Origin: Polyangiales bacterium
Lineage (GTDB): Bacteria > Myxococcota_A > Polyangia > Polyangiales > Ga0077539
DNA: 64,000 nucleotides
Direction of reading: 5' to 3'
Assembly (NCBI GenBank): GCA_044229975.1
Contig: JBGARZ010000023.1
Coordinates: 64,001 to 128,000, forward strand
Shown here in pieces: positions 15,831 to 57,544 of this stretch. Positions within the stretch are counted from its first letter, which is position 1, and each line of letters starts with the position of its first letter. The position numbers and the translations under genes are program-made. Under the pieces are notes generated by a model. The model made no database searches and had not been told where the DNA came from. It saw only the letters and a program-made list of their open reading frames with translations.

Positions 15831-17570
15831 TCAGGGCGCGACGAAGCGCACGCGCGGGCGCACCCGGAGCGGCGTCCCGTCGAGCGAGACGAGCACGCGC
15901 GCGCTGCCCGCAAACGTCGGCGCCACCAGCGCGCGCCGCGTCCTGCCAGACGGCTCGACGACCGCGGGTCCCGTCCACGCGCAGGCCCCGCTGCACTCGA
16001 TGGCCGCGGTCCTGGCTCCGGCGGCGGCCGGATCGACGATCACCTCCACCTCCGACACGCCGTCCGCCGGCACGACCCGCCGCGCGACCTCGACGGCGCT
16101 CGGTTCGATCACGGTCGTGTAGCGGCCCGCCTCCGCCGACACCGTCTGGCGCAGGCCGCTCGGCCACTCGACCGTCACGTCCGCACGTTCCTGCTGTCCG
16201 ACCGCTAGGACCACTCCGCGGTCGTGCTCACCGCCCATCGACGACTGTCCGCCGGCCACGACGACCAGGGGCGGCCGGGCGCCGTTCAGCGACACCCGCG
16301 CTCCCGCTGCTTCGGCGGACGACACCGCCCCTCTCAGGCGGAGCCCGACCCAGCGGCCGCGCGGTTCGAGACGGTTGCGCAGGACGACGAGGCCCCGCGA
16401 AGGGTCCCCTGAGGTCGCGAGGCAGTCCGGCTGCCCGTTGAGCGAGAAGTCCCCGCACGCGAGGCCATGGAACTGAATCGTGGCGTCGAGCACGCGGGGG
16501 GTGACGCAGCCGTAGGTGCCGTCCTTCTGATTGACGTACAGCGTGGCGGGCGCGGGGCCTCCGTTCTCTTCGGTGAGCGAGAGCACGAGCAGGTCGCTCC
16601 AGCCGTCGAGGTCGGCGTCCTGCGTTGCGCACCCCCAGGCGAACGAGCCCTCCGGTGAGGAGAGGAGGGCCGCGTTGGCGACCGACGGGAGCGAGCGCCC
16701 GCCGCTTCCGTGCAGCAGGACGTTGGTGTCGATGACGCCGCTGACGAAGTAGTCCATGCGCCCGTCGCGGTCGAAGTCGAGCGGGCACAGCCCCATGGGG
16801 TGGGCGTCGGCGAAGTCGTCCGAGACGCTCGCATCCCGCTCGAACGTGGGCTCGTCGGAGGGACGGCCCCAGTTCAACGACCCCTGGTCGAAGTCTGCGA
16901 CGACGAACAGCTCGCGGTAGCCGTCGCCGTCTACGTCGTCGAAGAACGTGCCGTAGCCCATGTAGAGGCCGTCGCGCGGGGCGAACGAGGGCGTGCGGTC
17001 CACGAAGCGGCCGTCGCCCCACGCGGTGAGCAGGACCGCGGGCGACTCGCGGCGCGCGTTGTAGGAGACCGCGAGGTCGGTCAGGCCGTCGAGATCGACG
17101 TCCGTCGCGAGGAGCTGGGTGGGTTGGCCACGCGTCGCGGGCGCGACCACCGTGCCCGGTCCGAAGCGGCACCCGCCGAGGCCTCGGTGCCACTGCACGC
17201 CGGGGCCCGCCACCACCAGGTCACCCTCGCCGTCCGCGTCGAGGTCCACGAAGGTTCCCGCCGAGGTCGTGCTCGGGATGGGCGCCTCCAGATCGAGCAG
17301 GTCGAAGCCGCCCTCCGCGCGTGCGACGAACACCCGGCGCCCGTTCATCACGTCGGGGCGGCCGTCCCCCGAGCAGTCGCCCACCGCGACGAAGGTCGAT
17401 GGCCCACCGCGACCTTCCAGGTCCACCTGGATTCGGCCGGGGATCTCGACCTCGGGGCATTGGTTCGTGCAGCTCGCGAGGAGTGCGCCCGCGCCGGCCA
17501 GTTGGCCCGCAAGCGCGAGGACGCTGCGAGAGTTCGCGGGTCCCCGCTTCACGGCTCGGAGGGGGCTCAC
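15831..17570 (-). CDS. CRTAC1-like FG-GAP repeat + ASPIC/UnbV domain lipoprotein
   Basis: Repeated DxDxDGxxDL motifs, VVLRN, GARVSL...VEWPSG (ASPIC/UnbV), lipobox LASC. GTG start overlaps the stop of the upstream gene. Confidence 0.8.
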   Translation of the reverse strand: MSPLRAVKRGPANSRSVLALAGQLAGAGALLASCTNQCPEVEIPGRIQVDLEGRGGPSTFVAVGDCSGDGRPDVMNGRRVFVARAEGGFDLLDLEAPIPSTTSAGTFVDLDADGEGDLVVAGPGVQWHRGLGGCRFGPGTVVAPATRGQPTQLLATDVDLDGLTDLAVSYNARRESPAVLLTAWGDGRFVDRTPSFAPRDGLYMGYGTFFDDVDGDGYRELFVVADFDQGSLNWGRPSDEPTFERDASVSDDFADAHPMGLCPLDFDRDGRMDYFVSGVIDTNVLLHGSGGRSLPSVANAALLSSPEGSFAWGCATQDADLDGWSDLLVLSLTEENGGPAPATLYVNQKDGTYGCVTPRVLDATIQFHGLACGDFSLNGQPDCLATSGDPSRGLVVLRNRLEPRGRWVGLRLRGAVSSAEAAGARVSLNGARPPLVVVAGGQSSMGGEHDRGVVLAVGQQERADVTVEWPSGLRQTVSAEAGRYTTVIEPSAVEVARRVVPADGVSEVEVIVDPAAAGARTAAIECSGACAWTGPAVVEPSGRTRRALVAPTFAGSARVLVSLDGTPLRVRPRVRFVAP

Positions 17571-18148
17571 GCCGTCGCTCTCGCCCGGGTCCAGACCCAC
17601 GCCCCCGCGCTCACCGCCACGGCGCCGCCGAGGAGCCCGGCGAACATGCCCAGGGCCTCGCCCAGGAAGAGCCCGCTGCACCGCACCGAGCCGATCGACA
17701 CCACGCCCAGCAGCATCCCGACGCCGGCGCGCGCGCGCTGCCCGCCGTCGCCGCGGCGCGGGAGGAGCGCCGCCATCACCACGCCGAGCGCGAGCCCGGC
17801 GAGGGCGCAGGTGCCGGGGCGGGCGCAGCAGTTCTCGCAGACCATCATCCCGGGCGGGCAGCACGGGCGCAGCAGGGACATCGGGAGCAGGAGCGCCGCG
17901 AGGCCGCCCAGAAGGCCCACCTGCGCGCCCCGTAGCCACCACCCCCGGCGCCAGCCGAGAAAGGTCCACGCGAGGACCACCAGCGCCAGGGTGAGGGGCC
18001 GGAGGGCGACGCCGGCCACACGCGCGGCGAGCACCGACAGGCCGAGGACGATCAGCGCGCGCACGAGCCCGTCCCGGGCGAGGCCCCACTCGTAGGCCCG
18101 GCGGACGCGCGCTTCGAGGGACGGCGGGGCGGTCAAATCAGGGGTCAC
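17567..18148 (-). CDS. Multi-TM membrane protein with Cys cluster, putative anti-sigma factor
   Basis: Several TMs, RRAYEWG, loop RPCCPPGMMVCENCCARPGTC. Overlaps the ECF sigma stop. Confidence 0.6.
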   Translation of the reverse strand: MTPDLTAPPSLEARVRRAYEWGLARDGLVRALIVLGLSVLAARVAGVALRPLTLALVVLAWTFLGWRRGWWLRGAQVGLLGGLAALLLPMSLLRPCCPPGMMVCENCCARPGTCALAGLALGVVMAALLPRRGDGGQRARAGVGMLLGVVSIGSVRCSGLFLGEALGMFAGLLGGAVAVSAGAWVWTRARATA

Positions 18149-18675
18149 GGGTCACCTCCCAGGAGGGCGCGGAGCCGGGCGTAGGCGCGGGACAGGCGTT
18201 TGCGGTGCGTGGCGGGCGCGATCGGCGGGGGCGCCCCCTCCCCGAGCAGGACGGCAATGGCCTCGGCCGAGGTCGGGTCGAGCGCGTCCACGCTCCCCTG
18301 GAGCGCGCGACGGAGCTCGCGCTCGGCGAGCGCGTCGTCCGCCGCGGCCTCGGGGCTCGGGTGGTGCTCCGGGACGGCGCCGGCGTCGTGCCGGGTGCGA
18401 CGAAGCTCGGCGCGGACCTCGTTGGCCACCACGGCGTAGAACCACGGCAGCGCCGGTCGCCCGGGGGTGAACGAGGCCGCGCGGGTGAAGAGCTTGACCA
18501 TGGCGGCCTGGGCGACCTCGTCGGCGCGCGCGGGCCCGAGGCGCCGGGCCGCCACCCGCAACGCGCGCGGGTGCAGCGCGCGGAACAGGGGCGTGAAGGC
18601 CTCGCGCTCGCCCTCGCTCACGCGCGCCATGAGGTCGTCGAGCTCGGCCTCCGAGGCTTCGCGGGTCGGAGGCAC
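18145..18675 (-). CDS. ECF RNA polymerase sigma factor
   Basis: LMARVSEGEREAFTPLF, ADEVAQAAMVKLF, PWFYAVVANE, RKRLSRAYARLR. Confidence 0.85.
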   Translation of the reverse strand: MPPTREASEAELDDLMARVSEGEREAFTPLFRALHPRALRVAARRLGPARADEVAQAAMVKLFTRAASFTPGRPALPWFYAVVANEVRAELRRTRHDAGAVPEHHPSPEAAADDALAERELRRALQGSVDALDPTSAEAIAVLLGEGAPPPIAPATHRKRLSRAYARLRALLGGDP

Positions 18676-18687
18676 GCGGGCGTCGGG

Positions 18688-18870
18688 TCAGCCCGCGCGG
18701 TGGCGGCCCTGGCAGCAGGGCGAGCCGGGATGGCAGCAGGGCGAGCCGGGGTAGCAGCAGTCGCCGGCGCCCCGGGCGGTGCGAACGGCGGTGACCGTCG
18801 CCCCGAGGCCCGTGGCGAGGGAGAGGGCCCCGAGGATCATCAGGGTCCGGGGGGAGAGCAGCTTCATCAT
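18688..18870 (-). CDS. Small secreted Cys-rich peptide with CCxPGSP repeats
   Basis: RBS GGAGG, signal-like N-terminus, DCCYPGSPCCHPGSPCCQG encoded by 21-nt repeats. First gene of the ECF operon. Confidence 0.75.
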   Translation of the reverse strand: MMKLLSPRTLMILGALSLATGLGATVTAVRTARGAGDCCYPGSPCCHPGSPCCQGRHRAG

Positions 18871-18894: not shown

Positions 18895-18921
18895 CTAGCC
18901 GTTCGGGCGGCGGCCGTGACC
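18895..18921 (-). promoter_or_regulatory. ECF-type promoter GGTCAC-N17-CTAG (copy 1)
   Basis: Minus-strand GGTCAC 18921-16 and CTAG 18898-95, upstream of the peptide-sigma operon. Confidence 0.7.
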
Positions 18922-31223: not shown

Positions 31224-31484
31224 ATGAACCTCCTGATCCCACGCGTTCTCATCCTGGTCAGTGCGACCGCCCTCCCGCTCGGGTGCGGGGGCCGCGAGGT
31301 CCCTGTGCGCTTCGCCGAGCAGTCGGCGCTCTCCTCGGGCGCGCGCGAGGCGCCGGTTGGCGACCCCACGGTGGCCCTCACGGGCGACCCGCCCCTCCCG
31401 GGCGAGCCCACCGGGGCCTGGACCGGCCTCGCCGCGGACGCGGGTGCTCCCCCGACCGGAGGAGGCCACGTCCATGCGCACTGA
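31224..31484 (+). CDS. Small lipoprotein with His tail
   Basis: Lipobox PLGC, C-terminus GGGHVHAH. Overlaps the TolC start. Confidence 0.65.
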   Translation: MNLLIPRVLILVSATALPLGCGGREVPVRFAEQSALSSGAREAPVGDPTVALTGDPPLPGEPTGAWTGLAADAGAPPTGGGHVHAH

Positions 31485-34343: not shown

Positions 34344-34916
34344 TCAGGGCAGGACGCGCACGACGCCGGCCATCCCGACGTGCCCGTGGGTGTTGCAATG
34401 GAACGGGTAGAAGCCGGCGCCCGCGAACGTCACCGTGTAGGTGTCCCCGGCACGCTGCGCCTCGATGGGGCTGGGGCTAGTGGCGCCCGCGCTCGACCCG
34501 TGCGGGACGCCGGGGTTCAACGGGTGGGTGGTGAGGCTCATGGCGAAGGTCACCGATTGGCCCGCGCGGATGGTGAGGCAGCGCGGGGTGTAGCCCGTGG
34601 TGCCGCGCGGCACCACGGTGCGCTCGGCGGCGTCGGCGGAGCGGTCCACGTAGGCCGAGGCCGCGCAGTCGTTGAGCAGGGGCACCATGGCGGGTGCGTC
34701 CGCCGCCGTACCGGCGTCGGTCCCGGCGTCCTGCTCGGCCGGTGCGACGTCGGCGACGGGCGGTTGGTCGGTCGCGGGGCCGACGTCCGTCGTCCCGACG
34801 TCGGCCGCATCGTGGCCGTCGTGGGCGGACGCGTCGCCGGTCGCGTCGTGGGCCATGTCACCGCAGCCGACAAGCAAAGCAAGCAGTGGGAGAACGATGG
34901 TCAGACGGGCGTGCAT
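34344..34916 (-). CDS. Plastocyanin/azurin-type cupredoxin lipoprotein
   Basis: Lipobox LVGC, THPL, YPFHCNTHGHVGMAGVV (type-1 Cu C-H-M). Confidence 0.85.
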   Translation of the reverse strand: MHARLTIVLPLLALLVGCGDMAHDATGDASAHDGHDAADVGTTDVGPATDQPPVADVAPAEQDAGTDAGTAADAPAMVPLLNDCAASAYVDRSADAAERTVVPRGTTGYTPRCLTIRAGQSVTFAMSLTTHPLNPGVPHGSSAGATSPSPIEAQRAGDTYTVTFAGAGFYPFHCNTHGHVGMAGVVRVLP

Positions 34917-34951: not shown

Positions 34952-36382
34952 TCAGGGCTCCACGCGCACGGTGGCCATCATCCCGTGCTCGATATGCTCG
35001 AGGATGTGGCAGTGGTACATCCAGTGGCCGGGGCGCTCGTCGGGGCGGAACGCGATGCGCACGCGCTCCTTGCCCCGGAGCTGGATCGTGTCCTCCCACG
35101 ACCGCTCGCCCTCGGGGGCGCCGTCGCGCGAGACCACCTGGAAGAAGAACCCGTGCAGGTGGAAGGGGTGCTCCATCTCGCTCGCGTTGACGAGGTCCCA
35201 GACCTCGGTGACGCCGACGCGCGCGACGACGTCGGGCACGTCGGGGTAGGACGCGTCGTTGATGGTGAAGACGACCCGCTCCGCGTCGCGGTCGATGTGC
35301 TCGTTGAAGGTCACGGTGCGCGGCGCGACGCCCGCCGTGGCCAGCGGCTCGACCCGCGGGCTGGGCGCGGGCGTGGCGAGCGCCGGCAGCGCCGGGTCGG
35401 GCGCGTAGCGGAGCCGTAGGATGTCCGACGCCTCGGTGAGGCCGGCGCCGTGGCCGCGGGCGTAGGGGAGGTTCTGGAGGACGGCCGTCGCACCCGGGTC
35501 GCCGGTACCGTCCACCAGGACGTCGAGGCGGTCCCCAGGCACCAGGAAGAGCTCGTCGGAGGCGCGCGGCGTCTCGACGGGACCACCGTCGGTGCCCACC
35601 ACGGTGAAGCGGTGTCCCGGCAGGGCGAGGCGGTAGAAGCGTGCGCTGCCCGCGTTGACCACGCGCCACCGCTGCCGCTGGCCCGCACGGATGGGGAGTT
35701 CCGCGCCCGCGCGGCCGTTGACCAGGGCGACGGCCCCCTCGCGGCCGGTGTGCTGCTCGACGAGGTCCCCGGTCGGCGCGATCTGGCCGTCGGCGCCGAG
35801 CAGCAGGTCGTCGAGCACCAGCACGCCCTCGGCGTCGGCGCGCGGCTCGCGGTCGCCCCGCACCACGATCGCGCCGTAGAGGCCGCGCTCCATCTGCACG
35901 CTCTCAGTGACGTGCGGGTGGTACCAGAAGGTCCCCGCGTCGGGCACGGTGAAGCGGTACTCGAAGGAGGCTCCCGGGGCGACAGGCGGCTGCGAATGGG
36001 GGCTTCCGTCCATGGAAGCGGGTACCCGCACGCCGTGCCAGTGGATGGTCGTGGGCTGGTCGAGGCGGTTGGTGAAATGCACGACCACCGTGTCGCCCGC
36101 GCGGGCCTCGATCGTCGGCCCCGGCACCGACCCGTTGTAGGTCATCGCCCGGACGCGACGACCCGGCGCGTACTCCCACTCGCCGAAGCGCGCCTCAAGG
36201 TCGATCTCGACGACGCGGGGATCGGGGTTGCGATCGACGGCGGGGGCGACCCGGAGCACCGAGGCCCAAGGGTCCGGGCCGGTGCGCGGGGTGGCCGACG
36301 TCGGGGGCGCGTCGCCGCAACCGCCGACGAGGAGCGCGGCAGAGAGGCTACAGAGGAGGTGTCGGTTGGACGGCATGATCAC
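34952..36382 (-). CDS. Three-domain multicopper oxidase lipoprotein
   Basis: Lipobox VGGC, HWHG, WYHPH, HPFHLHG, HCHILEHIEHGMM. Confidence 0.93.
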   Translation of the reverse strand: MIMPSNRHLLCSLSAALLVGGCGDAPPTSATPRTGPDPWASVLRVAPAVDRNPDPRVVEIDLEARFGEWEYAPGRRVRAMTYNGSVPGPTIEARAGDTVVVHFTNRLDQPTTIHWHGVRVPASMDGSPHSQPPVAPGASFEYRFTVPDAGTFWYHPHVTESVQMERGLYGAIVVRGDREPRADAEGVLVLDDLLLGADGQIAPTGDLVEQHTGREGAVALVNGRAGAELPIRAGQRQRWRVVNAGSARFYRLALPGHRFTVVGTDGGPVETPRASDELFLVPGDRLDVLVDGTGDPGATAVLQNLPYARGHGAGLTEASDILRLRYAPDPALPALATPAPSPRVEPLATAGVAPRTVTFNEHIDRDAERVVFTINDASYPDVPDVVARVGVTEVWDLVNASEMEHPFHLHGFFFQVVSRDGAPEGERSWEDTIQLRGKERVRIAFRPDERPGHWMYHCHILEHIEHGMMATVRVEP

Positions 36383-36430: not shown

Positions 36431-36457
36431 CTAGTCGCCCGAACCGAAGGTGTGACC
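36431..36457 (-). promoter_or_regulatory. ECF-type promoter GGTCAC-N17-CTAG (copy 2)
   Basis: Minus-strand GGTCAC 36457-52 and CTAG 36434-31, upstream of the MCO-plastocyanin operon. Confidence 0.7.
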
Positions 36458-37992: not shown

Positions 37993-38019
37993 GGTCACGG
38001 ACGGGATGGACACGGCTAG
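37993..38019 (+). promoter_or_regulatory. ECF-type promoter GGTCAC-N17-CTAG (copy 3)
   Basis: GGTCAC 37993-98 and CTAG 38016-19, upstream of the MNIO precursor. Confidence 0.7.
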
Positions 38020-38087: not shown

Positions 38088-38513
38088 ATGAACAACGAAA
38101 CCCGCGCGAAGCTTCTGGCGATGGTGTCTGCCGCTCTGGGCGGCGCGGCCCTTGAGGGCTGCGCGAGTAATCCGCCAGCGATGGCGCAGCCCCCGACGAG
38201 CGCGAGCGCTCAGTCGGCCACAGGGCAGGCCGGCAGCTGCAGTGCTGCGATGGCCCAGAGCGGGAACTGCGGCGCCAACATGGGCCACGCCCCGGGGGCA
38301 GCTCCGGCGGCCCCTCAGGGGGCGGCGACTGGGCAGGCGATGAGCTGCGGACACGACGGGAACTGCGGCGCGCACATGGCCGCGCCGACCGCGCCGGCCG
38401 CTCCGGGGACGACCGCGGCGCAGCCGACTGCACCGCCCGCCCCGGCCCCCACGACTCCCGCCGCGGCACCTCCTCCCGCGGCCCCCGCTCGCCCTCACGT
38501 CCACGCCCACTGA
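38088..38513 (+). CDS. Putative MNIO RiPP precursor (lipoprotein-type, Cys repeats)
   Basis: Signal with LEGC, two ATGQAxSC...GNCGA(N/H)M units, Pro/Ala tail, HVHAH. Ends 3 nt before the DUF692 gene. Confidence 0.75.
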   Translation: MNNETRAKLLAMVSAALGGAALEGCASNPPAMAQPPTSASAQSATGQAGSCSAAMAQSGNCGANMGHAPGAAPAAPQGAATGQAMSCGHDGNCGAHMAAPTAPAAPGTTAAQPTAPPAPAPTTPAAAPPPAAPARPHVHAH

Positions 38514-38516
38514 GCG

Positions 38517-39341
38517 ATGGCGCGCGTTGAGGGGGTCGGCCTGGGGCTGCGGGCGCCGCTGGTCGGTGACCTGATGACCCGGGCCCCGCCCTCGCTGCGC
38601 TGGGTCGAGGTCTCCCCCGAGAACCACATGGGCCGCGGAGGCTTCTTCGAGCGCATGCTCGCCGACGCGCGCGGGCGCTTCCCGGTGGTCACCCACGGCC
38701 TCAGCCTGGGCCTCGGCGATCGGGCCCCGCCGGAGCCCGCCTTCCTCCGGGCGTTGCGTGCCTTCCTGGAGGAAGTGGGAACGCCCTGGCACAGCGACCA
38801 CCTCTGCTTCGGGTCCGTGGACGGCGCGCACCTCCACGACCTGCTGCCGCTGCCCTTCACCCGCGAGAGCGCCCGCGTGGTGGCGGACCGCGTGCGCCTG
38901 CTGGAGGACGCCCTGGGCCTCCCGATCGCCGTCGAGAACATCTCCTGGTACGCCCACCCCGGCGAGGCGGAGATGGGCGAGGCGGACTTCCTCGGCGAGA
39001 TCGTCGCGCGCTGCGACGCGCGGGTCCTGCTCGACGTGAACAACGCCTTCGTCAACGCCCGCAACCACGGCACCGACGCGCGGGATTTCCTCCGGCGCGT
39101 TCCCGCCGAGCGTGTTGTGCAGATCCACGTCGCGGGGCACTTCACCGCCGCGGACGGCCTCCACATCGACACCCACGGGGAGCCCGTCTGCGAGGAGGTC
39201 TACGGCCTGCTCGAGTTCGCCCTCTCCCGCACTGGTCGGGTGCCAGTGCTCCTCGAGCGCGACGGCGGCTTCCCGCCCTTCGACGAGCTCGCGGCGGAGG
39301 TCGAGCGGCTCGACGCGATCCTGCGACGGGCCGCGCCGTGA
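38517..39341 (+). CDS. DUF692 multinuclear non-heme iron oxidase (MNIO, BufB/HvfB-like)
   Basis: GVGLGLR, PENHM, HGLSLGLG, SDHLC, HDLLPLP, ENISWY, LLDVNN, HVAGH, DTHG, LLERD. Confidence 0.93.
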   Translation: MARVEGVGLGLRAPLVGDLMTRAPPSLRWVEVSPENHMGRGGFFERMLADARGRFPVVTHGLSLGLGDRAPPEPAFLRALRAFLEEVGTPWHSDHLCFGSVDGAHLHDLLPLPFTRESARVVADRVRLLEDALGLPIAVENISWYAHPGEAEMGEADFLGEIVARCDARVLLDVNNAFVNARNHGTDARDFLRRVPAERVVQIHVAGHFTAADGLHIDTHGEPVCEEVYGLLEFALSRTGRVPVLLERDGGFPPFDELAAEVERLDAILRRAAP

Positions 39342-40081
39342 GCGACCTCGACGCGCGGCAGCGGGCGATCGCCCGCGTGTGCCTCGGCGAGGAGCCGCCG
39401 GCCGACGCACTGGCCCTCCTGGGGGGCGACCCGCGGCGGTGGCAGGTCTACCGCGACCTGGTCCGCACGCGGCTCTGGCGCGCCCTGCTGGAGGCCCTCC
39501 CGCGGACCTACGCGGCGGCGGGCCCCGATCGCTTCGGGGGCTGGTTCACGCGGTTCCTCGACGAGGCGCCGCCGCGCACGCGCTACGTGCGGGAGGTCGC
39601 CCCGGCCTTCGGGGCGTGGGTGCGCGCGGCCGAGGGGGACGCGCTGTCGCGCCCCGCGCCGTGGCTGCCGGACGCCCTCACGCTCGACCTCGCCGAGCAC
39701 CGGGTCGCGCTCTCCGACGCGCGCCTCGACCCGTCCCGCGTGGCGCCGTTCTCGATGGACCTCCCGGCGGCCCTGGACCCTGCCCACTGCCGCGCACGGC
39801 TGTGGTGGGCGATGGACGGCGCGTCGGCCATCCATCGCCCCCGCGCGCTCCTCGTCCACCGTCACCCGGCGACGGGCCGCGTCGAGACGATGGAGCTCGA
39901 CGCGCTCGACGCGGAGGTAGTGGACGCGATGGACGACGAGGCGACGCCCGTAACGGCGGCGGTCCTGTCGGTGCTGAACCGCCACGGTCTGGCCGCCGAC
40001 GCCGCCTTCTCGGGCCGCCTCGCCGGCCTGCTCGCCGACCTGATGGAGCGGGGCGTCTTGCTAGGCTCTCGACGGCCCTGA
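39338..40081 (+). CDS. DUF2063-type MNIO partner protein (BufC/HvfC-like)
   Basis: RWQVYRDLVR...LLEALPRT...F...WL D. GTGA-coupled to DUF692. Confidence 0.75.
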   Translation: MSDLDARQRAIARVCLGEEPPADALALLGGDPRRWQVYRDLVRTRLWRALLEALPRTYAAAGPDRFGGWFTRFLDEAPPRTRYVREVAPAFGAWVRAAEGDALSRPAPWLPDALTLDLAEHRVALSDARLDPSRVAPFSMDLPAALDPAHCRARLWWAMDGASAIHRPRALLVHRHPATGRVETMELDALDAEVVDAMDDEATPVTAAVLSVLNRHGLAADAAFSGRLAGLLADLMERGVLLGSRRP

Positions 40082-44013: not shown

Positions 44014-44125
44014 GGACTAGATATCTGGAACTGTTGACCTACTAGTCCACTGCGTGTAAGCTTCTTTTTAGCGAGTTTTTGTAGAAACGGACTAGATGCC
44101 AGACATAGAGAAAGAATTAGTCCAC
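44014..44125 (+). promoter_or_regulatory. Sigma70 promoter with two GGACTAGAT-N20-TAGTCCAC operator units
   Basis: TTGACC 44034-39, N17, TAAGCT 44057-62. Operator units at 44014-44050 and 44089-44125. Confidence 0.7.
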
Positions 44126-45208
44126 GTTGCGCGGCTCGCCCTTGAGGGGCGACGCCCCGACCTCGTCGCCGTTGTCCGGCGCTCCCTCCGGTCCCTCGCA
44201 GGGCGACGGCCCGACTTGCAGGAGCAGATCAACGCGGTGCTGGCTCTCGCGTCGGCCAACCCCCCGATCCGCGAGGCGTCCAGGCTCCCCATCCCCGCGG
44301 ACAACGACAGCCGTGCCGAGCTCATCCGCCGCGATGACCAGCCGGAGGTGGCGATCGAGCCGACGTGGCCTGCGGCCGTCGAGAAGGCGCTCGGGGAGTT
44401 TTTGCTGGAGCGTGACCGGGAGGCGGAACTGCGCGCGGCTGGTCTGTCCCCCGTCCGCTCGCTGCTTTTCATCGGCCCGCCCGGTGTCGGCAAGACCATG
44501 GCTGCGCACTGGGTGGCCCAGCGTCTCGGGCGGTCGCTCCTCACGCTCGACCTGGCGGCCGTGATGAGCTCCTACCTGGGGCGCACGGGGCTCAACTTGA
44601 AGGTCGTGTTGGACTACGCACGGCACCAACACGCGGTGCTGCTGCTGGACGAGTTCGACGCCATCGCCAAGCGCCGCAACGACGACGCGGAGGTCGGGGA
44701 GCTCAAGCGCCTCGTCACGGTGCTCCTCCAAGCCATCGACCAGTGGCCGAGCGACGGGGTGCTGCTGGCGGCGACCAACCACCCTGAGTTGCTTGATGCC
44801 GCTGTGTGGCGCCGCTTCGACCGGGTGATCGAGTTCCCGTGTCCGACCGTCCCGGAGATTCGGTCGTCCGTGGAGAGGCTCCTTGGCGCGCCGGCGGCCT
44901 CGGACCTCGCCGAGGTCCTCGACACGCTGGCCGCCCTTCTCGGCGGCCAATCCTTCGCGGACGTCGTGCGGCATGTGAACTCCGCGCGCCGCGCGTCGGT
45001 GCTGCGGGGCATCCCGCTGAGCGAGGCGCTGACCGAGCTGACGAGCGAGCTCGTCCGCGCGGCGCCACTGGAGCGAAAACTACAGTTCGCCCGCGAGCTC
45101 GAACGCCAGAAGCGCTCGCAGCGGACGATCTCCCAGATCACGGGGCTCTCCCGCGACACGATCCGAAAGCACCTGGGCAAGGGCGCCCCGACGGGCGGTC
45201 GGAAATAG
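44096..45208 (+). CDS. AAA+ ATPase (IetA-like) with C-terminal HTH
   Basis: GPPGVGKT, LLLDEFDAI, AATNH, AVWRRFD, and HTH SQRTISQITGLSRDTIRKHL. Confidence 0.88.
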   Translation: MPDIEKELVHVARLALEGRRPDLVAVVRRSLRSLAGRRPDLQEQINAVLALASANPPIREASRLPIPADNDSRAELIRRDDQPEVAIEPTWPAAVEKALGEFLLERDREAELRAAGLSPVRSLLFIGPPGVGKTMAAHWVAQRLGRSLLTLDLAAVMSSYLGRTGLNLKVVLDYARHQHAVLLLDEFDAIAKRRNDDAEVGELKRLVTVLLQAIDQWPSDGVLLAATNHPELLDAAVWRRFDRVIEFPCPTVPEIRSSVERLLGAPAASDLAEVLDTLAALLGGQSFADVVRHVNSARRASVLRGIPLSEALTELTSELVRAAPLERKLQFARELERQKRSQRTISQITGLSRDTIRKHLGKGAPTGGRK

Positions 45209-45223
45209 AAGGGTTGAAGGACC

Positions 45224-47464
45224 ATGGCGCGCGAGAACAACTTTTTGCTCGGTCGCGGTGAGCGCCTCACCGAGCCCGTCGAAGTGCCCTCGGGCGGAGG
45301 CGACAAGAACCCTCCCTACGACTTCGACAACGCCCGCACCCGCGTGGCGCAGAGGCTCGCTGTTGCGGGGGACACGATGCGGTCGATGCCAAGAGACGCC
45401 TGCCCGCGCGGCGAGGCGGTCGCGATCCTGACCATGCACCCCCGCTACATTTCGAAGAGCGATTTTCCCAACGAGTTGCTGATCGCCGCCGGCGTGCGGG
45501 CGGTGGGCAGCCGGTCGCGCGCCGTCACGCCCGAGCGGTGGGGCGTGCAGCTCCATCCGGTGCGCGCCGTCACCGAGGAGATCTTCATCGCGGGACCCCG
45601 CGACAACTTCACCCGGTGGGCGGCGCAGGTGAGCGCGTGGACCGAGCAGACCCGCGGCGCGCGCCACCTGACCCACGTCGAGGACCTGGCCGCCTTCACG
45701 GCGTCCGAGAAGCTCCGCGCGATCCCTGCGAACCGGGACGAGGTGCTCCTCGAGGTGGTGCTCCACAACGCCGACGACGAGGGCATCGTCGAGGCTTTCG
45801 AGGCCTACGCGCTGCGCCGCGGGGCGCGGCCGCTCATGGAGCGCCTGCGCCGGGTGCAGGGCCTGGGGTTCGTGCCGGTGAGGGCGGCGGCCGAGAGGGT
45901 CGGCGAGTTGGCGGCGTTCACGTTCGTGCGCGTCGCGCGCGGGATGCCCTCGCTGCGCCCTTGCGAGCCGGGGGTGCTCCGCGTGGTGGGCGGGTTCCCG
46001 GTCAACCTGCCGACGGAGGGCCCCCTCGACAACGAGGTCCGCGCGGTGGTCTTTGACGGCGGCCTGCCGAAGTCCGAGCGCGCGCGGCTCGCCCCGTGGG
46101 TCACGTACGTCGAGCCGGCGGGCATCGGCCCCGCCGTGCCTCAGTACGAGGCCCACGGCCTGAGCGTGACGGCGGCGCTGGCCTTCGGCCCCCTCTCGAA
46201 GGCGGGTCCGCTGCCGCGACCGCTCTGTCACATCGACCATGTGCGCATCCTCGACGACGGCACGGGCACGACCCCGAGCGACCTCGAGTGCGTGGACGCC
46301 CTCGACCGGATCCTGGGCTTCCTGGAGGCGCACCCGGCCGAGTACGGGTATGCCAATATCAGCGTGGGTCCGAACATCGCCGTGGCAGACGACGAGGTCA
46401 CCCTTTGGACCGCCTCGCTGGACGAGCGGTTCGCTCACGGCGCGATCCTCGCGACCATCGCCGCGGGCAACGACGGAGAGCTCGACGCGGAGAGCGGCGC
46501 CAACCGGGTCCAGCCGCCCGCGGACGGCGTGAACGTGCTGGCCGTCGGCGCGTCCCACCGGCCCGGGTCCGCCTGGCAGAGGGCGGCCTACAGCTGCGTC
46601 GGCCCGGGGCGCAGCCCCGGCGTGGTGAAGCCCGATGGCGTGGCGTTCGGCGGCTCCGACGAGGAGCCCTTTATGGTGCTCGGACCCGGCCTCCGCGCGC
46701 GCGGCGTCCAGGGCACCAGCTTCGCGTCGCCCTTCGCGCTGCGCAACGCGCTGTCCGCGCGCGTGCAGATCGGCAGCGACCTCGCGCCCCTCACCGCCCG
46801 CGCGCTGCTGATCCACCGGGCGGACCCGGCCAAGCACCCCCAGCCCCACGTCGGCTGGGGTCGCTTCGAGTCGGACTCATCGATGTTGGTCACCTGCGAC
46901 GACGACGAGGCGGTCGTGGTGTTCCAGGGCGAGCTCCCTGTGAAGGAGCACCTTCGGGCGCCGATCCCCCTCTCGCAGGTGGCCTTGGCGGGGAAGGTCA
47001 CGCTCTCGGCGACCCTCCTGATCGCGCCCGAGGTCGATCCGGGCTACCCCGGCGTCTACACGCGCAGCGGGCTGGAGGTCTCCTTCCGCCCGCACCGGGA
47101 CAAGTTCAAGCGGTACGACGACGGCTCGACGTCCGCTCACCCCAAGACGGACTCGTTCTTTTCGGCGGCGCACCTATACGGCGTGCCCGAGTACGAGACC
47201 CGCGAGGATGGTCACAAGTGGGAGCCGGTGCTGCGCAGCTCCCGGACGTTCCTCGCGTCGTCGCTCAAGGAGCCGTGCTTCGACATCTACTACCACCACC
47301 GCAGCAAGGGCACGGCGGCCGCCGAGCAGCATCCAATCCCCTACGCGCTCGTGGTGAGCGTGAAGGCCCCGAAGGTGGCCGACCTCTACAACCAGGTCGT
47401 GCGCGCCTACGCGAACATCCTCGTGCCGATGCGGCCGCGCGTGCAGATCCCCCTGTCGGCCTAG
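45224..47464 (+). CDS. S8 subtilisin-like serine protease (IetS-like)
   Basis: Catalytic D (VFDGG), H (HGLSV), oxyanion N (AAGND), S (GTSFASP), KPD motif. No signal peptide. Follows the AAA ATPase. Confidence 0.88.
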   Translation: MARENNFLLGRGERLTEPVEVPSGGGDKNPPYDFDNARTRVAQRLAVAGDTMRSMPRDACPRGEAVAILTMHPRYISKSDFPNELLIAAGVRAVGSRSRAVTPERWGVQLHPVRAVTEEIFIAGPRDNFTRWAAQVSAWTEQTRGARHLTHVEDLAAFTASEKLRAIPANRDEVLLEVVLHNADDEGIVEAFEAYALRRGARPLMERLRRVQGLGFVPVRAAAERVGELAAFTFVRVARGMPSLRPCEPGVLRVVGGFPVNLPTEGPLDNEVRAVVFDGGLPKSERARLAPWVTYVEPAGIGPAVPQYEAHGLSVTAALAFGPLSKAGPLPRPLCHIDHVRILDDGTGTTPSDLECVDALDRILGFLEAHPAEYGYANISVGPNIAVADDEVTLWTASLDERFAHGAILATIAAGNDGELDAESGANRVQPPADGVNVLAVGASHRPGSAWQRAAYSCVGPGRSPGVVKPDGVAFGGSDEEPFMVLGPGLRARGVQGTSFASPFALRNALSARVQIGSDLAPLTARALLIHRADPAKHPQPHVGWGRFESDSSMLVTCDDDEAVVVFQGELPVKEHLRAPIPLSQVALAGKVTLSATLLIAPEVDPGYPGVYTRSGLEVSFRPHRDKFKRYDDGSTSAHPKTDSFFSAAHLYGVPEYETREDGHKWEPVLRSSRTFLASSLKEPCFDIYYHHRSKGTAAAEQHPIPYALVVSVKAPKVADLYNQVVRAYANILVPMRPRVQIPLSA

Positions 47465-47554
47465 CGTCGCCCACCGGTCCCAGACCCGACGAGCGAACTC
47501 GTTCCCGCGCACGGCCTTTGAGGGCCTCCACCAACCCCGATCATCGAGAGAGCC

Positions 47555-47716
47555 ATGACCACTAAGAAGCCGAACATCGAGCGCCAACACCCCGACCCGC
47601 GACCCCCGCGCCAGGGCGAGTTTCGCCAAGACCACGGGCGGGAGCCGGGCCTGATCACCAACCAGATGCCGAAGGAGAGCAACCCTCCTCCCGCGCCGCC
47701 GGCCGACAAGAAGTGA
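47555..47716 (+). CDS. Small Pro-rich protein (53 aa, below the ORF-track cutoff)
   Basis: MTTKKPNIERQHPDPRPPRQGEFRQDHGREPGLITNQMPKESNPPPAPPADKK, with purine-rich GAGAGAG upstream and GC3-rich codons. Confidence 0.5.
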   Translation: MTTKKPNIERQHPDPRPPRQGEFRQDHGREPGLITNQMPKESNPPPAPPADKK

Positions 47717-47743
47717 TTCCGTAGAAGGCGGTTCAAGCTCCTC

Positions 47744-48760
47744 GTGGACGTCGGTTGCACTCCCATCCTCAGCTTCGTCGGCACCCTCCTCGCCTTGGGG
47801 GTGACCAAGACTTTCGAGCGGGTGCTGACGCGGCGCCAGGACGCGAGCGACCTGGCGAGGGACGTCCTCGTGGACTTCGCGAGCACGCTGACCAGCGTAG
47901 AGCGGACCCTCGCGGTGCTGGCCCGCGAGCCCGCGGTCTCCCGGCGCGAAGACCTCCCAAGCATTTCGAGCGCGTTCAGCCGTAGGCCTCCGACCATCTC
48001 GCTCGAGCGCATGCTCAACGTCTTTCACGACGAGCGCCTCCACCGCTCCCTGATGCTCTTCTTCGACCGCCAAGCGCTGTTCGCGGAAAGCTCGGACGAG
48101 CGCCGAGCCGCCTTCTATTGGTTGATCGACCGGCCGGAAACGTCCGCGGAGGACCTAGCGGCTCAGGAGCGGCTGGGCGTCATCCGGTACTCGCGGGTGC
48201 AGATGACGCAGCACTGCTCGGACATGCTCAGGCACGGATACGAAGTGATCGAGCACCTCTTCGACCGCGCGGAGCGGGCGTTCGCACCCATGAGGGCGGA
48301 CTTCGCGGAGACGCGGGCGTTCCTCAAGTCTAAGTACGGCCTGGACTCGGAGACGATCCGCTTGAGGCGCGCGTACTACAGCGCCGAACGGATCGAAGAC
48401 GACGAGGCGCAGGCCGCTCCGTTCGAGCCCAGCCTCGCCTACGGCCTCACGTCGTGGGAGGGGCCCCTCGCCAACGAGGTGGCCGCCCGCGGAGGCTGCC
48501 TCCAACTCCGGGTAGAATCCCCCTCGCAGGAATGCCGCCTGCTCCTCTCGCTCTCGCCCGAGACGGAAGTCGCTCTGCCACGCAACGCTCGCGTGGTCTG
48601 CGCTCACGTATGCCTGCGGGGCACCGGAGCGGGTGGTGTTCACCACGCGGTGAATCTCGAGCAACTCGACGTGACCAAGCCGCCCGTGGTGGGCCGCGTT
48701 CGACTGGAGGGTCCCTCGCTTGCGCGGTTGGGAGACGCCCTCCGAGAGCGGGGCCAATGA
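47744..48760 (+). CDS. Hypothetical protein with one N-terminal TM and a helical body
   Basis: ILSFVGTLLALGV hydrophobic segment, coding-like codon usage. Lies between ietS and the CD-NTase. Confidence 0.6.
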   Translation: MDVGCTPILSFVGTLLALGVTKTFERVLTRRQDASDLARDVLVDFASTLTSVERTLAVLAREPAVSRREDLPSISSAFSRRPPTISLERMLNVFHDERLHRSLMLFFDRQALFAESSDERRAAFYWLIDRPETSAEDLAAQERLGVIRYSRVQMTQHCSDMLRHGYEVIEHLFDRAERAFAPMRADFAETRAFLKSKYGLDSETIRLRRAYYSAERIEDDEAQAAPFEPSLAYGLTSWEGPLANEVAARGGCLQLRVESPSQECRLLLSLSPETEVALPRNARVVCAHVCLRGTGAGGVHHAVNLEQLDVTKPPVVGRVRLEGPSLARLGDALRERGQ

Positions 48761-48920
48761 ACGGGATGCAAGACAGTCGTGTGCCGCGCGAACCCCGCGT
48801 CCCTCGGCGCGAAGTCGCGTTCAGATCACAAAACGCCCGGCAACCGGTCGCCGGGACAGGAGCACGAACAGGTGGCGAAACTTGTCCGTCGAGCGCGACT
48901 GGCTCCAGTGTCCCGATCCC

Positions 48921-50378
48921 ATGAAGCTCCTCGACCACTTCAGCGAGTTTATGACCGAGGTCGTGAACCTAAACGACACGCGGGTGGACCAGCTCGAAAA
49001 GAGCATCGTCACCCTCAAGGGAGTCATCCGCGGTTCCGCCTGGGGGCCAAAGGTGAGTTCCTTTGAGGCTCAAGGATCGTGGGCCCACAAGACGATCATC
49101 AGGCCTGTCGGCGACAACGCCTTTGACGCCGATCTGCTCGCCTTCGTGGAGCCTGTCGAGGGATGGGACGCCCGGAAGTACCTCACCACCCTCCGCTCGG
49201 TGTTCGCCAGCCTCGCCCCCTACGAAGGGAAGGTCACCCGCTCGTCGCACTGCGTGACGATCGAATATGCCGGAGAACGCAAGATCGACATCGCCCCATG
49301 TGTCGTGGACAGGACGGGCGTTCCTCGCTTCGAGGTATGCAACCACGATCGGAACGAATTCGAGGAATCGGAGCCGAAAAAGTACACCGACTGGTTTGTC
49401 CAGCGGAACGCTTGGACGGGTGGCAACGGCCTCCGCAAGGTGACCCGGCTCCTGAAGTATCTGCGCGACATCAAGGGCACGTTTACCTGCCCGTCGGTTC
49501 TCTTCACCACCCTGCTTGGCTACCGGATCGACTGGCTCGACGATGCCAACTCAAAAGAGTTCAACGATTTGCCGACGTCGCTCAAGACCATCACGAGCCG
49601 TCTGGACGACTGGTTGCAGACGCGACCGTTGCGGCCGAACGTGACCAACCCGGTCCTGCCTTCCGAGGCCTTCAGCGACTTGTGGGACGATGCGCAGTAC
49701 GCGAACTTTCGAGAGCGAATCCATACGTACCGCGCCTGGATCGACGACGCCTACGACGAGACCGACCCCGACGAGAGCATCGGTAAATGGCAGCGAGTGT
49801 TCGGCGATCAGTTCGCCAAGAACGCCGCGATGGAGAAGGCCGCCTTGGTGTCGGAGGACGCCGCTAGCCGCCTTTCGGAAAGCACGATACTTGCGGGCCC
49901 CGGCTCGCGGGAAGACCTAGTCGCACTCTTCACCCGCTTCGGGCGACAGATCCTGCCGAAGGGGTTCGACAGGCTCCCGCACAAGCACCGGCCACGCTGG
50001 CCTGCACTCTCGAGACCTCCGTTTCGGGTCAGCGTTGTGGCCAACCGTCACACCGCCCGAAACGGCGACTGGATTGCGCCGGTGGCCTCCGGGGAGGGCC
50101 CTTTGCCTAAGCACCACTGGCTCCAGTTCCGGGCTCGTACCGAAGACGGCTCTCCTCTAGCGGCCAACTTCGAGGTCCATTGGCGCGTGACCAACACCGA
50201 CCGGGCGGCCAGGGAAGCCGACTGCCTGCGCGGGTGGTTTGATAGGGGCAACGACGGAGCATCCCGTTGGGAGCGACTCCAGTACCGGGGCGTCCACTCC
50301 GTGGAGGCCTTTGTCGTGCGCAGGGACGACCAGATGTTGGTGTCCCAGAGCGATCCCTTCTACGTGGTCATCGAATAG
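48921..50378 (+). CDS. SMODS-family CD-NTase with C-terminal AGS-C domain (CBASS cyclase)
   Basis: VNLN, QGSWAHKTIIRP, FDADLL, IDIAP, RLLKYLRD, SVLFTTL, W..VFG..F. C-terminal VHWRVTN...LRG...E.LQYRGVHSVEAFVV. Confidence 0.85.
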   Translation: MKLLDHFSEFMTEVVNLNDTRVDQLEKSIVTLKGVIRGSAWGPKVSSFEAQGSWAHKTIIRPVGDNAFDADLLAFVEPVEGWDARKYLTTLRSVFASLAPYEGKVTRSSHCVTIEYAGERKIDIAPCVVDRTGVPRFEVCNHDRNEFEESEPKKYTDWFVQRNAWTGGNGLRKVTRLLKYLRDIKGTFTCPSVLFTTLLGYRIDWLDDANSKEFNDLPTSLKTITSRLDDWLQTRPLRPNVTNPVLPSEAFSDLWDDAQYANFRERIHTYRAWIDDAYDETDPDESIGKWQRVFGDQFAKNAAMEKAALVSEDAASRLSESTILAGPGSREDLVALFTRFGRQILPKGFDRLPHKHRPRWPALSRPPFRVSVVANRHTARNGDWIAPVASGEGPLPKHHWLQFRARTEDGSPLAANFEVHWRVTNTDRAAREADCLRGWFDRGNDGASRWERLQYRGVHSVEAFVVRRDDQMLVSQSDPFYVVIE

Positions 50379-50417
50379 ACCGTGGCCAGCCTGCGCTGGC
50401 CGCTGTGAGGCAAACCG

Positions 50418-51341
50418 ATGAACCAGATTCCGAACCTCCAGAACGAAGAAGCGCAGCTCAAGCTACGGCGGGCCTGCAAACGCTTCTATACGCTCGCCAC
50501 CTGGGTGATGGCGTCCCAGCTTGTTCTCACACTGGGCCTTCCGCTCGTAGGGGCGACCCTCACGATCTTCTGCCCCGCGGTGAGCGCCTATGTGGCTTCG
50601 GTCTCGCTCGTGGTGCTCGTGCTCGACGTCCTCGTGCTTGACCGTCAGCACAAGTTGCTGATGAAGCGCGCCGCGAAGATCGCCGAGCAGTTCGACTGCG
50701 CCGTTTTGGATCTGCCTTGGGACCAGTTCATCGTCGGGGACAGAGTCGAAGCGGAGGACGTCCACAGGGCAGCAACGGACTTTGCGGCATCTCACGACGA
50801 CGCGGAGCTTCGAGGGTGGTACCCCGAGGCCGTGGGGGCTGCGCCTATGCACCTTGCACGCATCATCTGTCAGCGCTCCAACCTTCGCTACGACAGCAAG
50901 CTGCGGCGCAGCTACGGCACAGCGATCGTTGCTGTCGTCGTGGTCGTGCTGATCGCCCTATTTGCCTCCGGCTTGGCGCGCGGACTCTCGCTGACCGCCT
51001 GGGTGTTGAGCATGGTTCCAGCCTCGTCCATGCTCGCCTGGGCGGTCCGCGAGTACTACCGCCAGCGCGACACCGCCGACTTCTTGGAAGACCTGATGAA
51101 GGAAGCCAAGAAGCTGTGGGGGCAGGCGCTCGGAGGCTCCTGCGACGCCGAGGGCTGTCGGCAGAAGTCGCGCGAGTTCCAGAACGCCATCTACGCGCGT
51201 CGAGCCACAAGCCCGCTCGTCATGCCGTTCCTCTACCGCCTTCAGCGCGCGAGGCTGGAAGACGAGATGAAAGAAGGCGCGGCAGCTTGGCTGCGCGAAC
51301 TCAACGAGACATCCGTGGCCTCCGATCTCGGGGGCCGATAG
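50418..51341 (+). CDS. S-4TM (SMODS-associated 4TM) pore-forming CBASS effector
   Basis: IPNLQN, two TM hairpins, EQFDCAVLDLPW, LRGWY, ICQRSNLRYD, R...PLVM. Directly after the CD-NTase. Confidence 0.85.
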   Translation: MNQIPNLQNEEAQLKLRRACKRFYTLATWVMASQLVLTLGLPLVGATLTIFCPAVSAYVASVSLVVLVLDVLVLDRQHKLLMKRAAKIAEQFDCAVLDLPWDQFIVGDRVEAEDVHRAATDFAASHDDAELRGWYPEAVGAAPMHLARIICQRSNLRYDSKLRRSYGTAIVAVVVVVLIALFASGLARGLSLTAWVLSMVPASSMLAWAVREYYRQRDTADFLEDLMKEAKKLWGQALGGSCDAEGCRQKSREFQNAIYARRATSPLVMPFLYRLQRARLEDEMKEGAAAWLRELNETSVASDLGGR

Positions 51342-51803
51342 GTACGGTCGCTCACTGCAGCGTACTCGTTTCTTGGATAGGATCGACCGTACCCAGTGCG
51401 CGATCCCCATGCCAACGATGCCATTGCGCTGCTTGCGAGCGCCCGCGCCCCGTAGTGGACGCCGCGCCCGACGTGGCCGTCATCGCGCCAACCGACGGCC
51501 GCCGACGCGCTCGATCGCATGCGGGCTCTGGAAGCCCGCTTCCTCGGTCTCCATGGCGACGCCGGCCTTGCCACCGTTCACTCCGGCGTCGAGTGGCTCC
51601 CCGGGCTCAACTGACCGACACGCGCGACCGCGAACTCGACGAGGTCTTCACCGCCTCGCCCCCTGCCCCCTGCCCCCGCGCCGTCTTCCTCGCGCTCTGC
51701 CGTCGGTACATCCAACGCCGGGTGGCAAAGAAGTGCGCCCTACGACCGTAGGGGCGCCCGTGCGGGGTTTCGGGCCGGAGGCTGCGTGGTACGTTCCGAC
51801 CCG

Positions 51804-53003
51804 GTGCAGATCCGCGCGCTGAACGTGAGCAACTTCCGCAGCCTTGGTTACGACGTGCGGATCGAGTTCCCCCGTGAGGGCACCCGGCTGATCGTACTCG
51901 CGGGGGGCAACGGCGCGGGTAAGAGCAACGTCCTCGACGCCTTCGAGTTCGTGGGTGACGTGACCCGCGTCGGCATCGACGTCGCCATGACGGCGCGTGG
52001 TGGCGAGGGCTCGGTGCTCCGCGAAGGCAGTGATTATCTCGAGCTGGCGGTCGAGTTTGAGTACGGAGAGGGCCGCCTCGTCTGGGGCATTGGATTCTCC
52101 AGACACGACACGCTGTGGGGGCGCGGCTGGGAGTGGGGGTACGCGGTGCCGACGCGCTCCCTCCCCGGCTACGACGCCGCGCTTCAGGCGGCGCTGGGCG
52201 GCGAAGGCGTGCGGACCAGAGAGCTCGGACGCGCGGGGGTGCTTCACGACCTTCCCGATCGGGGGAGCTTCGCGGAGGCCGCGTGGGAGGAGGGCAACCT
52301 TTCCGGGACGCAGAGCGGTGGCCTCGCCGAGCACGCGCGTACCAACGTTCGCTGGCGGGCCGTGAGGGAGCACCTCGCTGCGTGGCGCACGTACGTGCTG
52401 CCGATCGAGACGATCCGCGACCCGAGGTCGTCGGGGGTGGAGCGGGTGATGGTGCGTGACGGGGGGAACTGGCCGTCCGTGCTCCGGTCGCTGGACCCGG
52501 CGGGGCCGGGTCTGGAGCTGCGGGCCGCCCTCTGCCGTTTGGTGCCCGACCTGACCGACTACGACGTGCTCGACGCCGGAGGTCGCAACATCGCGCGGTT
52601 CCAGCACCGCGGTGCCGGGGGCGACCTCTGGCGGGCCGCGCCGCTGGAGTCGGACGGGACCCTGCGCGCTGCGGCCCTCCTCACGGCAACACTGCAGCGC
52701 CCCCTGCCCGTGCTCCTCGGCGTCGAGGAGCCCGAGACGGCCATCCACGTCCGGGCCCTGGGCGTGATCGCGGACTTCCTCCTGGACGCCGCCGACCACG
52801 CACAGGTCGTCCTCACGACCCAGAGCCCCGACCTGCTGGATCTCCTCCCGCCGGACGCCGTCCGGGTCGTGACGCGCGACGAGCGCGGGACCACGGTTCA
52901 CCCGCTCGACCCCGTGCAGCGGGCCGTCCTCCAAGCGGGTGGCGGGACCGGCGCCCTGCTCCGCGAACAGGGCCTGATCGCTGCCGAGGCGGCCCGTGGG
53001 TAG
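51804..53003 (+). CDS. AAA_21/ABC-type ATPase
   Basis: VSNFRSL, GGNGAGKSN, ESDGT signature, GVEEPETAIH, TTQSP. Confidence 0.85.
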   Translation: MQIRALNVSNFRSLGYDVRIEFPREGTRLIVLAGGNGAGKSNVLDAFEFVGDVTRVGIDVAMTARGGEGSVLREGSDYLELAVEFEYGEGRLVWGIGFSRHDTLWGRGWEWGYAVPTRSLPGYDAALQAALGGEGVRTRELGRAGVLHDLPDRGSFAEAAWEEGNLSGTQSGGLAEHARTNVRWRAVREHLAAWRTYVLPIETIRDPRSSGVERVMVRDGGNWPSVLRSLDPAGPGLELRAALCRLVPDLTDYDVLDAGGRNIARFQHRGAGGDLWRAAPLESDGTLRAAALLTATLQRPLPVLLGVEEPETAIHVRALGVIADFLLDAADHAQVVLTTQSPDLLDLLPPDAVRVVTRDERGTTVHPLDPVQRAVLQAGGGTGALLREQGLIAAEAARG

Positions 53004-54815: not shown

Positions 54816-54910
54816 CACGGCTCTGAAAAATTCGAAGGCCACGTTGGCTTTCGGACTACTTAGTGGCGGCGACGGGGCTTCCGAAATTCGGCCAGAAGGA
54901 AGATGGAACG

Positions 54911-57511: not shown

Positions 57512-57544
57512 CCCGACCCCCACCCCCGAGGTAGGGTCAGGCCC

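Follow-up and report, generated by a model that had tools for sequence, protein, structure and literature searches.

A putative lipid-anchored, captophorin-like MNIO cluster in a metal-resistance island of a Polyangiales bacterium

All characterised clusters that combine an MNIO (DUF692) enzyme with a PME1-type partner install 5-thiooxazoles, according to the accessible text of 10.1101/2025.11.18.689057. In the same text, the fontiphorin pair FonBC accepts substitutions at the majority of repeat positions and needs a small residue after the Cys (Gly and Ala were tested); the part available reports no modification of Ser-Cys, Asn-Cys or Cys-Ser. Lipidated members have also been described. The lipidated EGKCG peptide lipo-NedA was shown experimentally: the triacylated, MNIO-modified product was isolated with a mass shift of -12 Da and its class was named DAG-RiPPs (PMC13056109). 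The sections of that paper at hand further predict lipidated bufferins and oxazolins plus an uncharacterised CxxxxC cluster, and about 16% of Buf2 precursors are predicted lipoproteins in the accessible text of PMC12452194. For the CxxxxC family these two sources give Lactamase_B_2 in 54% of the clusters.

Here we analyzed a stretch of 64,000 nucleotides from a Polyangiales bacterium (assembly GCA_044229975.1, contig JBGARZ010000023.1, positions 64,001 to 128,000), referred to as the window. It contains a precursor gene, an MNIO gene and a gene for a PME1-type partner, which form a translationally coupled trio: the precursor stop and the MNIO start are separated by 3 bases, and the MNIO stop overlaps the partner start (Table 1). 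The initial annotation had called this an MNIO RiPP cluster with a coupled precursor-DUF692-DUF2063-like operon, and the spacing, the overlap and the Pfam matches bear it out. The MNIO scores 300 bits against PF05114 (cut-off 25) and the partner 39.3 bits against PF09836, DUF2063 (cut-off 27.2). The partner also comes just below the cut-off of PF22106, NGO1945_C (26.5 bits versus 27), and matches the HvfC model below its cut-off with an E value of 5e-14. The copper setting and the missing DoxX neighbor noted in the same annotation were found as well. The surrounding metal-resistance island encodes two multicopper oxidases, a cupredoxin, CopZ, P-type ATPases, CusCBA-type efflux and CopM; the multicopper oxidases, cupredoxin, CopZ, a CopA-type ATPase and CopM flank the cluster. 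The genome has two DoxX matches, which lie on contigs C2 and C10 and not on the contig of the window. A scan for sigma-70 promoters and terminators found nothing.

Table 1. Coordinates of the features in the window
Feature	Position	Strand	Remark
Precursor gene	38088..38513	+	141 aa, predicted lipoprotein, four core Cys
Signal peptide with lipobox-like LEG-Cys25	38088..38162	+	Glu at -2 non-canonical
Repeat unit 1: AGSCS (Cys51), SGNCG (Cys61), then ANM	38217..38282	+	residues 44-65
Repeat unit 2: AMSCG (Cys87), DGNCG (Cys93), then AHM	38325..38378	+	residues 80-97
Pro/Ala linker and C-terminal HVHAH	38379..38510	+	
MNIO (DUF692) gene	38517..39341	+	274 aa
PME1-type partner gene (DUF2063 and RRE-type C-terminal domain)	39338..40081	+	247 aa
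GTCAC-N17-CTAG, likely ECF-sigma promoter of the precursor operon	37994..38019	+	68 bases 5' of start codon
Second GTCAC-N17-CTAG	36431..36456	-	upstream of multicopper oxidase and cupredoxin genes
Third GTCAC-N17-CTAG	18895..18920	-	upstream of Cys-peptide/ECF sigma/anti-sigma module
Multicopper oxidase gene	34952-36382		neighboring operon
Cupredoxin gene	34344-34916		neighboring operon
Likely regulator module	17567..18870	-	Cys-rich peptide, ECF sigma and Cys-rich membrane protein
Cys-rich peptide	18688-18870	-	60 aa
ECF sigma	18145-18675	-	
Cys-rich membrane protein	17567-18148	-	likely anti-sigma

Translation of 38088-38513 confirmed the two repeat units, the Pro/Ala tail and the HVHAH end that had been read from the sequence earlier. 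The precursor has Cys at positions 25, 51, 61, 87 and 93; the core Cys are paired, 5 and 9 residues apart, and Pro plus Ala make up 77% of residues 98-136. The enrichment in Met and His was also confirmed, with 11 such residues against a family median of 1. No match to any Pfam or NCBIfam model was obtained for this protein, with the HvfA models searched up to E = 1.

Relatives of the cluster were collected with the MNIO. The best 80 MNIO relatives in GTDB genomes carry labels that are nearly all Myxococcota, Polyangiales or Deltaproteobacteria, and in 59 of these loci the ORF immediately upstream of the MNIO encodes a complete precursor that has a hydrophobic signal and a Cys near position 22-27. 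The script that picked the precursors favored a Cys at about 22-27; an unfiltered pass gave the same ORFs. The remaining 21 loci comprise five that are cut at a contig end with the motif still visible, one frameshifted precursor, one with an atypical signal, five with too little upstream DNA, three whose precursor lies on the opposite strand at a distance of 2-3 kb, and six in which no precursor was found. One pick without repeats (L072) was false and was removed from the precursor set. Class-wide searches (E up to 1e-70) detected the MNIO in 90 of 301 genomes and a precursor of the family type in 37 of 44 loci, several of which overlap with the best 80. The family also includes a Pyxidicoccus precursor (P0045). 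Contigs from three public RNA libraries match the window precursor with 0-1 differences, span it and bridge into the MNIO gene, a sequence match compatible with transcription of the operon. Because homologous precursors stand directly upstream of the MNIO in so many loci, and because of these contigs, the cluster is not a chance arrangement. Searches of the ESM Atlas returned only nameless Myxococcota clusters, with recognition below threshold for both queries.

Several of the related loci deviate in organization. In L013, L017 and L018, the three with a distant precursor, the latter lies near a radical SAM and a CobW/methyltransferase ORF, and a YceI gene precedes the MNIO. L004-L006 (~5470-5997; L005 4483-4956) encode sister precursors with nine core Cys, CxC motifs and many His; an ECF + NrsF pair lies upstream of those in L004 and L006.

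Within 60 precursors of the family the residue before the core Cys is Ser in 187 of 250 cases and the residue after it is Gly, Ser or Ala in 245 of 250, in line with the small residue that FonBC requires there. The commonest 5-mers around the Cys are EASCG (51) and EGSCG (48), and by comparison of the sequences AGSCS, SGNCG, AMSCG and DGNCG of the window precursor are variants of this myxobacterial repeat. The family repeat [EA][GA]SCG in turn grades into the EGKCG of oxazolin and the captophorins. One relative (L147) combines the signal scaffold of the family with canonical EGKCG repeats, the reference precursors of Neisseria gonorrhoeae and Pseudomonas aeruginosa mix EGKCG/EAKCG with GSCG and GNCG, and the HvfA-family model NF050137 is passed by 3 of the 23 precursors tested and by one more in another search. 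The earlier suggestion of a new precursor class is not supported in view of these intermediates. The proposed comparison with BufA and HvfA models thus had a divided outcome: the window protein itself is without a match, and its family is linked to HvfA/oxazolin. Since a few relatives pass NF050137 and the window protein does not, the cluster would work like the HvfA/oxazolin family without being a filed member. On these sequence comparisons the cluster would act in the manner of a lipidated captophorin, and it lies outside the HvfA and bufferin families as their models define them.

The MNIO enzyme gives a similar picture. Its best NCBIfam score is that of the HvfB family (288 bits; the NF003818 equivalog cut-off of 360 is not reached), and with the BufB model NF050167 it scores 267 bits, below the cut-off of 310; it is therefore a separate branch. 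Four relatives gave HvfB scores of 281-298 bits. Scores on the ApyH, ChrH and MbnB models are far below those for HvfB and BufB (ChrH 51 of 600 bits). A tree of 24 MNIOs separated 17 myxobacterial enzymes, together with the EGKCG-type enzymes from Neisseria and Pseudomonas, from five bufferin-type references with a support of 100/100; the references number only seven and were labeled by annotation or by a reading of their precursors. In this tree the window enzyme groups with the EGKCG-type enzymes, to which its clade is sister. A fourth, distant MNIO (G000 C38, ~102990-104680, minus strand; 38% identity) has a partner gene beside it and no identified precursor; its long branch places it close to the bufferin-type references.

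The best PDB match of the window MNIO is 3BWW, and the roles of residues were inferred by mapping them through this structure onto characterised enzymes. All 83 MNIOs compared share H60, H95, E140, D173, N176, H204, H208, D218, H220, E247 and D249, and the window enzyme has every predicted iron ligand as well as the Asp equivalent to the catalytic base of FonB. N176, D218 and H220 correspond to the site-3 ligands described as required in HvfB, as far as the accessible text goes. By the same inferred mapping, two specificity sites of FonB differ in the window enzyme (Arg16 is replaced by Ala, Phe250 by Gly). The window group lacks both the Arg16 equivalent and a Glu at repeat position 1. Covariation between the Arg16 site and this Glu was considered and rejected, because Glu-rich precursors also pair with Tyr, His, Met or Val at that enzyme site.

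Two properties of the characterised clusters, namely that those with a PME1 all install 5-thiooxazoles and that FonBC requires a small residue after the Cys, are the basis of the chemistry we infer for the window. The intact predicted iron ligands and the grouping with EGKCG-type enzymes suggest that 5-thiooxazoles are likely formed from all four core Cys. A different chemistry, with one heterocycle and one thiol or disulfide in each Cys pair or with a macrocycle like those made by ChrH and DybH, would fit the pairing of the Cys in the window, the CxxxxC motif that 48 of 61 relatives possess and the window precursor lacks, the position of the clade below both curated MNIO cut-offs, and the two altered specificity residues. 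We judge it very improbable nevertheless, given the low ChrH score, the presence of a PME1 partner, the absence of a CPACG motif and C-terminal bundle, and the fact that every Cys sits in a captophorin-like 5-mer of its own.

Whether the peptide carries a lipid is a separate issue. The signal sequence has a basic n-region and a hydrophobic h-region with a mean hydropathy of 2.05. Its LEG-C25 does not satisfy a Prosite-style lipobox pattern, which 53 of the 62 family precursors pass; the failures are the window precursor and eight more. The residue at -1 is Gly or Ala in all 62, and the Glu at -2 recurs in seven members, the window and six close relatives, all of which keep the Cys and a small -1 residue. 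The lipoprotein-like signal that the initial annotation described is therefore upheld as likely from the position of Cys25, the h-region and the -1 residue, and is qualified in that the Glu at -2 is non-canonical. We regard lipid anchoring at Cys25 as likely and not as proven because this Glu fails the lipobox rule. Should the Glu block Lgt, the peptide would be modified and not lipidated, and either signal peptidase I would release a soluble captophorin or the uncleaved signal would serve as the anchor. The AxA site A31-M32-A33 could serve such a cleavage, yet it lies about 11 residues beyond the h-region, and the family-wide conservation of Cys25 and the small -1 residue, which includes the seven members with Glu, also makes this outcome improbable. 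A lipid anchor as such is no novelty, contrary to what had been suggested: the accessible parts of PMC13056109 (lipo-NedA) and PMC12452194 (lipoprotein Buf2) already contain it.

With these data the cluster can be set against the described systems. It has in common with the captophorins (oxazolin HvfABC, fontiphorin FonABC and gonophorin NgoABC; 10.1101/2025.11.18.689057, as far as accessible) the order precursor-MNIO-PME1, the signal peptide, a low-complexity precursor with xGxCG 5-mers, and the conserved iron ligands and catalytic Asp. It differs in that Ser or Asn replaces Lys ahead of the Cys, position 1 has no Glu, and the core Cys number only four; a lipoprotein-type signal, a Pro/Ala tether and a His tail are further differences. 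It is also without DoxX, and its precursor and MNIO remain below the NCBIfam cut-offs. The DAG-RiPP lipo-NedA from Neisseria dentiae shares a signal that is likely of the SPII type here, Cys repeats, the MNIO with its partner and a proposed sequestration of copper at the membrane (accessible text of PMC13056109). However, NedA has tested EGKCG repeats, whereas the window precursor has xGSC/xGNC repeats and Glu at -2. Cluster X (PMC13056109) and the CxxxxC family (PMC12452194) were compared by their descriptions, and Cluster X could belong to the family of the window. Bufferins Buf1 and Buf2 (10.1101/2024.03.18.585515; PMC12452194; both available in part) share the MNIO-PME1 pair and, by prediction for the window, Sec export and ECF control (SigF/NrsF), and buf2 is without DoxX like the window cluster. 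Unlike them, the window cluster has neither DUF2282 nor a pattern of six or twelve Cys, and its MNIO lies across the 100/100 split. Chryseobasin and DybA (ChrH, DybH) have a lipid anchor and an MNIO-modified core, both of which are predicted for the window peptide, but it is their CPACG motif and C-terminal helical bundle that the window lacks. Among the relatives, no DoxX was found in 32 hydrophobic ORFs scanned nearby, with less than 1.8 kb of downstream sequence in 8 loci, and Lactamase_B_2 was absent among 30 recurrent neighbors scanned.

A literature search found no description of a myxobacterial Ser-Cys lipoprotein lineage, of which the supplementary SSN tables and datasets of three MNIO surveys may hold some members, and none of a GTCAC-N17-CTAG promoter; PMC12766979 and PMC13445942 gave no MNIO terms in a term search. 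Neither the myxobacterial Ser/Asn-Cys lineage nor its subtype with CGA[N/H]M and HxHAH was found in print. To the captophorins and DAG-RiPPs of Pseudomonadota and Bacteroidota they add a lineage in which nearly all precursors found are lipoprotein-like and have Ser-Cys in place of Lys-Cys, and most of these precursors are missed by current family models. With no Glu1, no Lys3 and an enzyme without equivalents of Arg16 and Phe250, the lineage is a natural test of the substrate rules of MNIOs. It opens neither a new chemistry nor a new kind of system.

The copper genes next to the window cluster raise the question of its function. With nine copper proteins of the island as queries, copper genes were detected within 6 kb in 6 of the best 80 loci, three of them through a P-type ATPase only, which is about equal to the background of 37 in 760 genome tiles. 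A family-wide copper linkage is rejected on this comparison; the other 74 loci have no match to the island copper proteins, and their recurrent neighbors are housekeeping genes. Five of 62 precursors (the window, L001-L003 and the copy on C31) form the subtype that combines CGA[N/H]M with an HxHxH tail; all of them adjoin oxidase/cupredoxin genes and have 9-11 Met and His against the median of 1. These five copies count as about one event because the islands are homologous, and at least four Met/His-rich relatives occur outside copper islands. The evidence argues for a local copper link at the island of the window and not for one across the family.

The genome carries two cluster copies besides that of the window, on C19 and C31. 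The C31 MNIO shares 91% identity with that of C19 and 78% with that of the window, whereas the C31 precursor is closer to the window (65%) than to C19 (54%). This cluster of the second island (L082, 10175-12168; G000 C31) looks mosaic, with an island-type promoter. A search in six frames found five instances of H[VAN]HAH before a stop in the genome; they are two precursors and three small lipoproteins that head efflux/oxidase operons. One of the latter is an 86-aa lipoprotein-like ORF without a family at 31224-31484 on the plus strand of the window, which has the same C-terminal HVHAH as the precursor, stands ahead of an efflux-protein/oxidase operon and has copies on C27 and C31.

A comparison of the window with C31 brought out the motif GTCAC-N17-CTAG, which lies upstream of both precursors although the spacer sequences differ. 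The window has three sites versus 0.19 expected (0/100 shuffles), one of the three having defined the motif. In the whole genome it is not enriched, with 7 exact sites at spacer 17 and also 7 at spacer 21; six of the former are the same three sites in two islands. A form with one mismatch precedes the operon of the HVHAH lipoprotein, efflux protein and oxidase in both islands. In genome G370 the motif has 14 matches against 26 for its reversed control, and it is missing at the MNIO operons in the remaining genomes inspected. Homologues of the ECF module were compared at nine loci in six genomes; eight loci have the exact motif upstream and the ninth has a one-mismatch form, and this holds down to about 51% sigma identity. 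In the class the module was found in 6 of 301 genomes, every copy with the motif or its one-mismatch form. The position of the motif upstream of the module fits an autoregulated ECF promoter, and the promoter shared with the cluster points to the module as a candidate metal sensor. It is possibly an undescribed metal-sensing ECF group. Its signal-bearing peptide has the pattern CCxPGxxCCxPGxxCC, and its Cys-rich membrane protein belongs to no Pfam or NCBIfam family. A second ECF sigma (~18962-19560, minus strand), with SigZ as its best match, lies behind a heavy-metal P-type ATPase and is CorE/ECF238-like: its linker contains a CxC and its C-terminus is rich in Cys. This CorE-like sigma is disfavored as the reader of the motif, because in genomes that belong to another family the motif goes with the first ECF module.

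Other members of the family have sites of a different ECF type: G[A/T]AAC-N15-17-CGTA-like sequences occur upstream of 17 of 61 precursors compared with 268 of 11641 random windows (2.3%). The sister loci L004, L006 and L007 have ECF + NrsF upstream, a combination also carried by bufferin clusters in the accessible descriptions. From these two observations it is likely that the lineage of the window changed its promoter on entering the island.

The reading we favor, and consider probable, is that this is a myxobacterial cluster of the captophorin branch whose core Cys become copper-binding 5-thiooxazoles in an exported peptide that is lipidated at Cys25 and acts as a copper sponge on the membrane. 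The MNIO and its partner would oxidise Cys51, Cys61, Cys87 and Cys93 in the cytoplasm, with a loss of 4 Da each and up to 16 Da in total. Sec export, lipidation by Lgt and cleavage by LspA at Cys25 would follow, and the product would be held on the periplasm-facing side of the membrane. Copper would be bound by the thiooxazole thiolates. In the subtype, the Met and His behind each GNCG repeat would assist, and so would the HVHAH tail, which is borne on a flexible Pro/Ala tether. The ECF sigma of the island would induce the cluster together with the multicopper oxidase/cupredoxin operon through GTCAC-N17-CTAG.

The same chemistry and anchor could instead serve a general response to envelope, oxidative or multi-metal stress, with the island being the address of just one lineage. 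The 74 loci among housekeeping genes, the different ECF-type promoter of other members and the additional metal efflux systems of the island speak for this role. We nevertheless hold it to be unlikely, considering the added Met/His and HxHAH of the subtype, the motif common to the precursor and the oxidase operon, and the binding of copper by characterised relatives in the accessible literature. A further proposal is more speculative and on the whole doubtful. A housekeeping lipid-anchored captophorin may have become a hybrid chelator in the island, with Ser/Asn-Cys thiooxazoles, Met/His and HxHAH; with the usual ECF promoter of the family swapped for GTCAC-N17-CTAG it would have joined the oxidase regulon under an undescribed module of ECF sigma, Cys-rich anti-sigma and CCxPG peptide, which would sense periplasmic copper. 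If this is true, the role of the tethered peptide would be to capture Cu(I) and pass it to the co-induced oxidase.

Beyond the cluster, at 44096-58432, the window contains a defence-like block of lower GC content. It encodes an AAA ATPase with an S8 peptidase, AAA_21 with DUF4276, a serine recombinase, and a SMODS/AGS-C nucleotidyltransferase with an S_4TM effector, a pair which we take to be CBASS-like.
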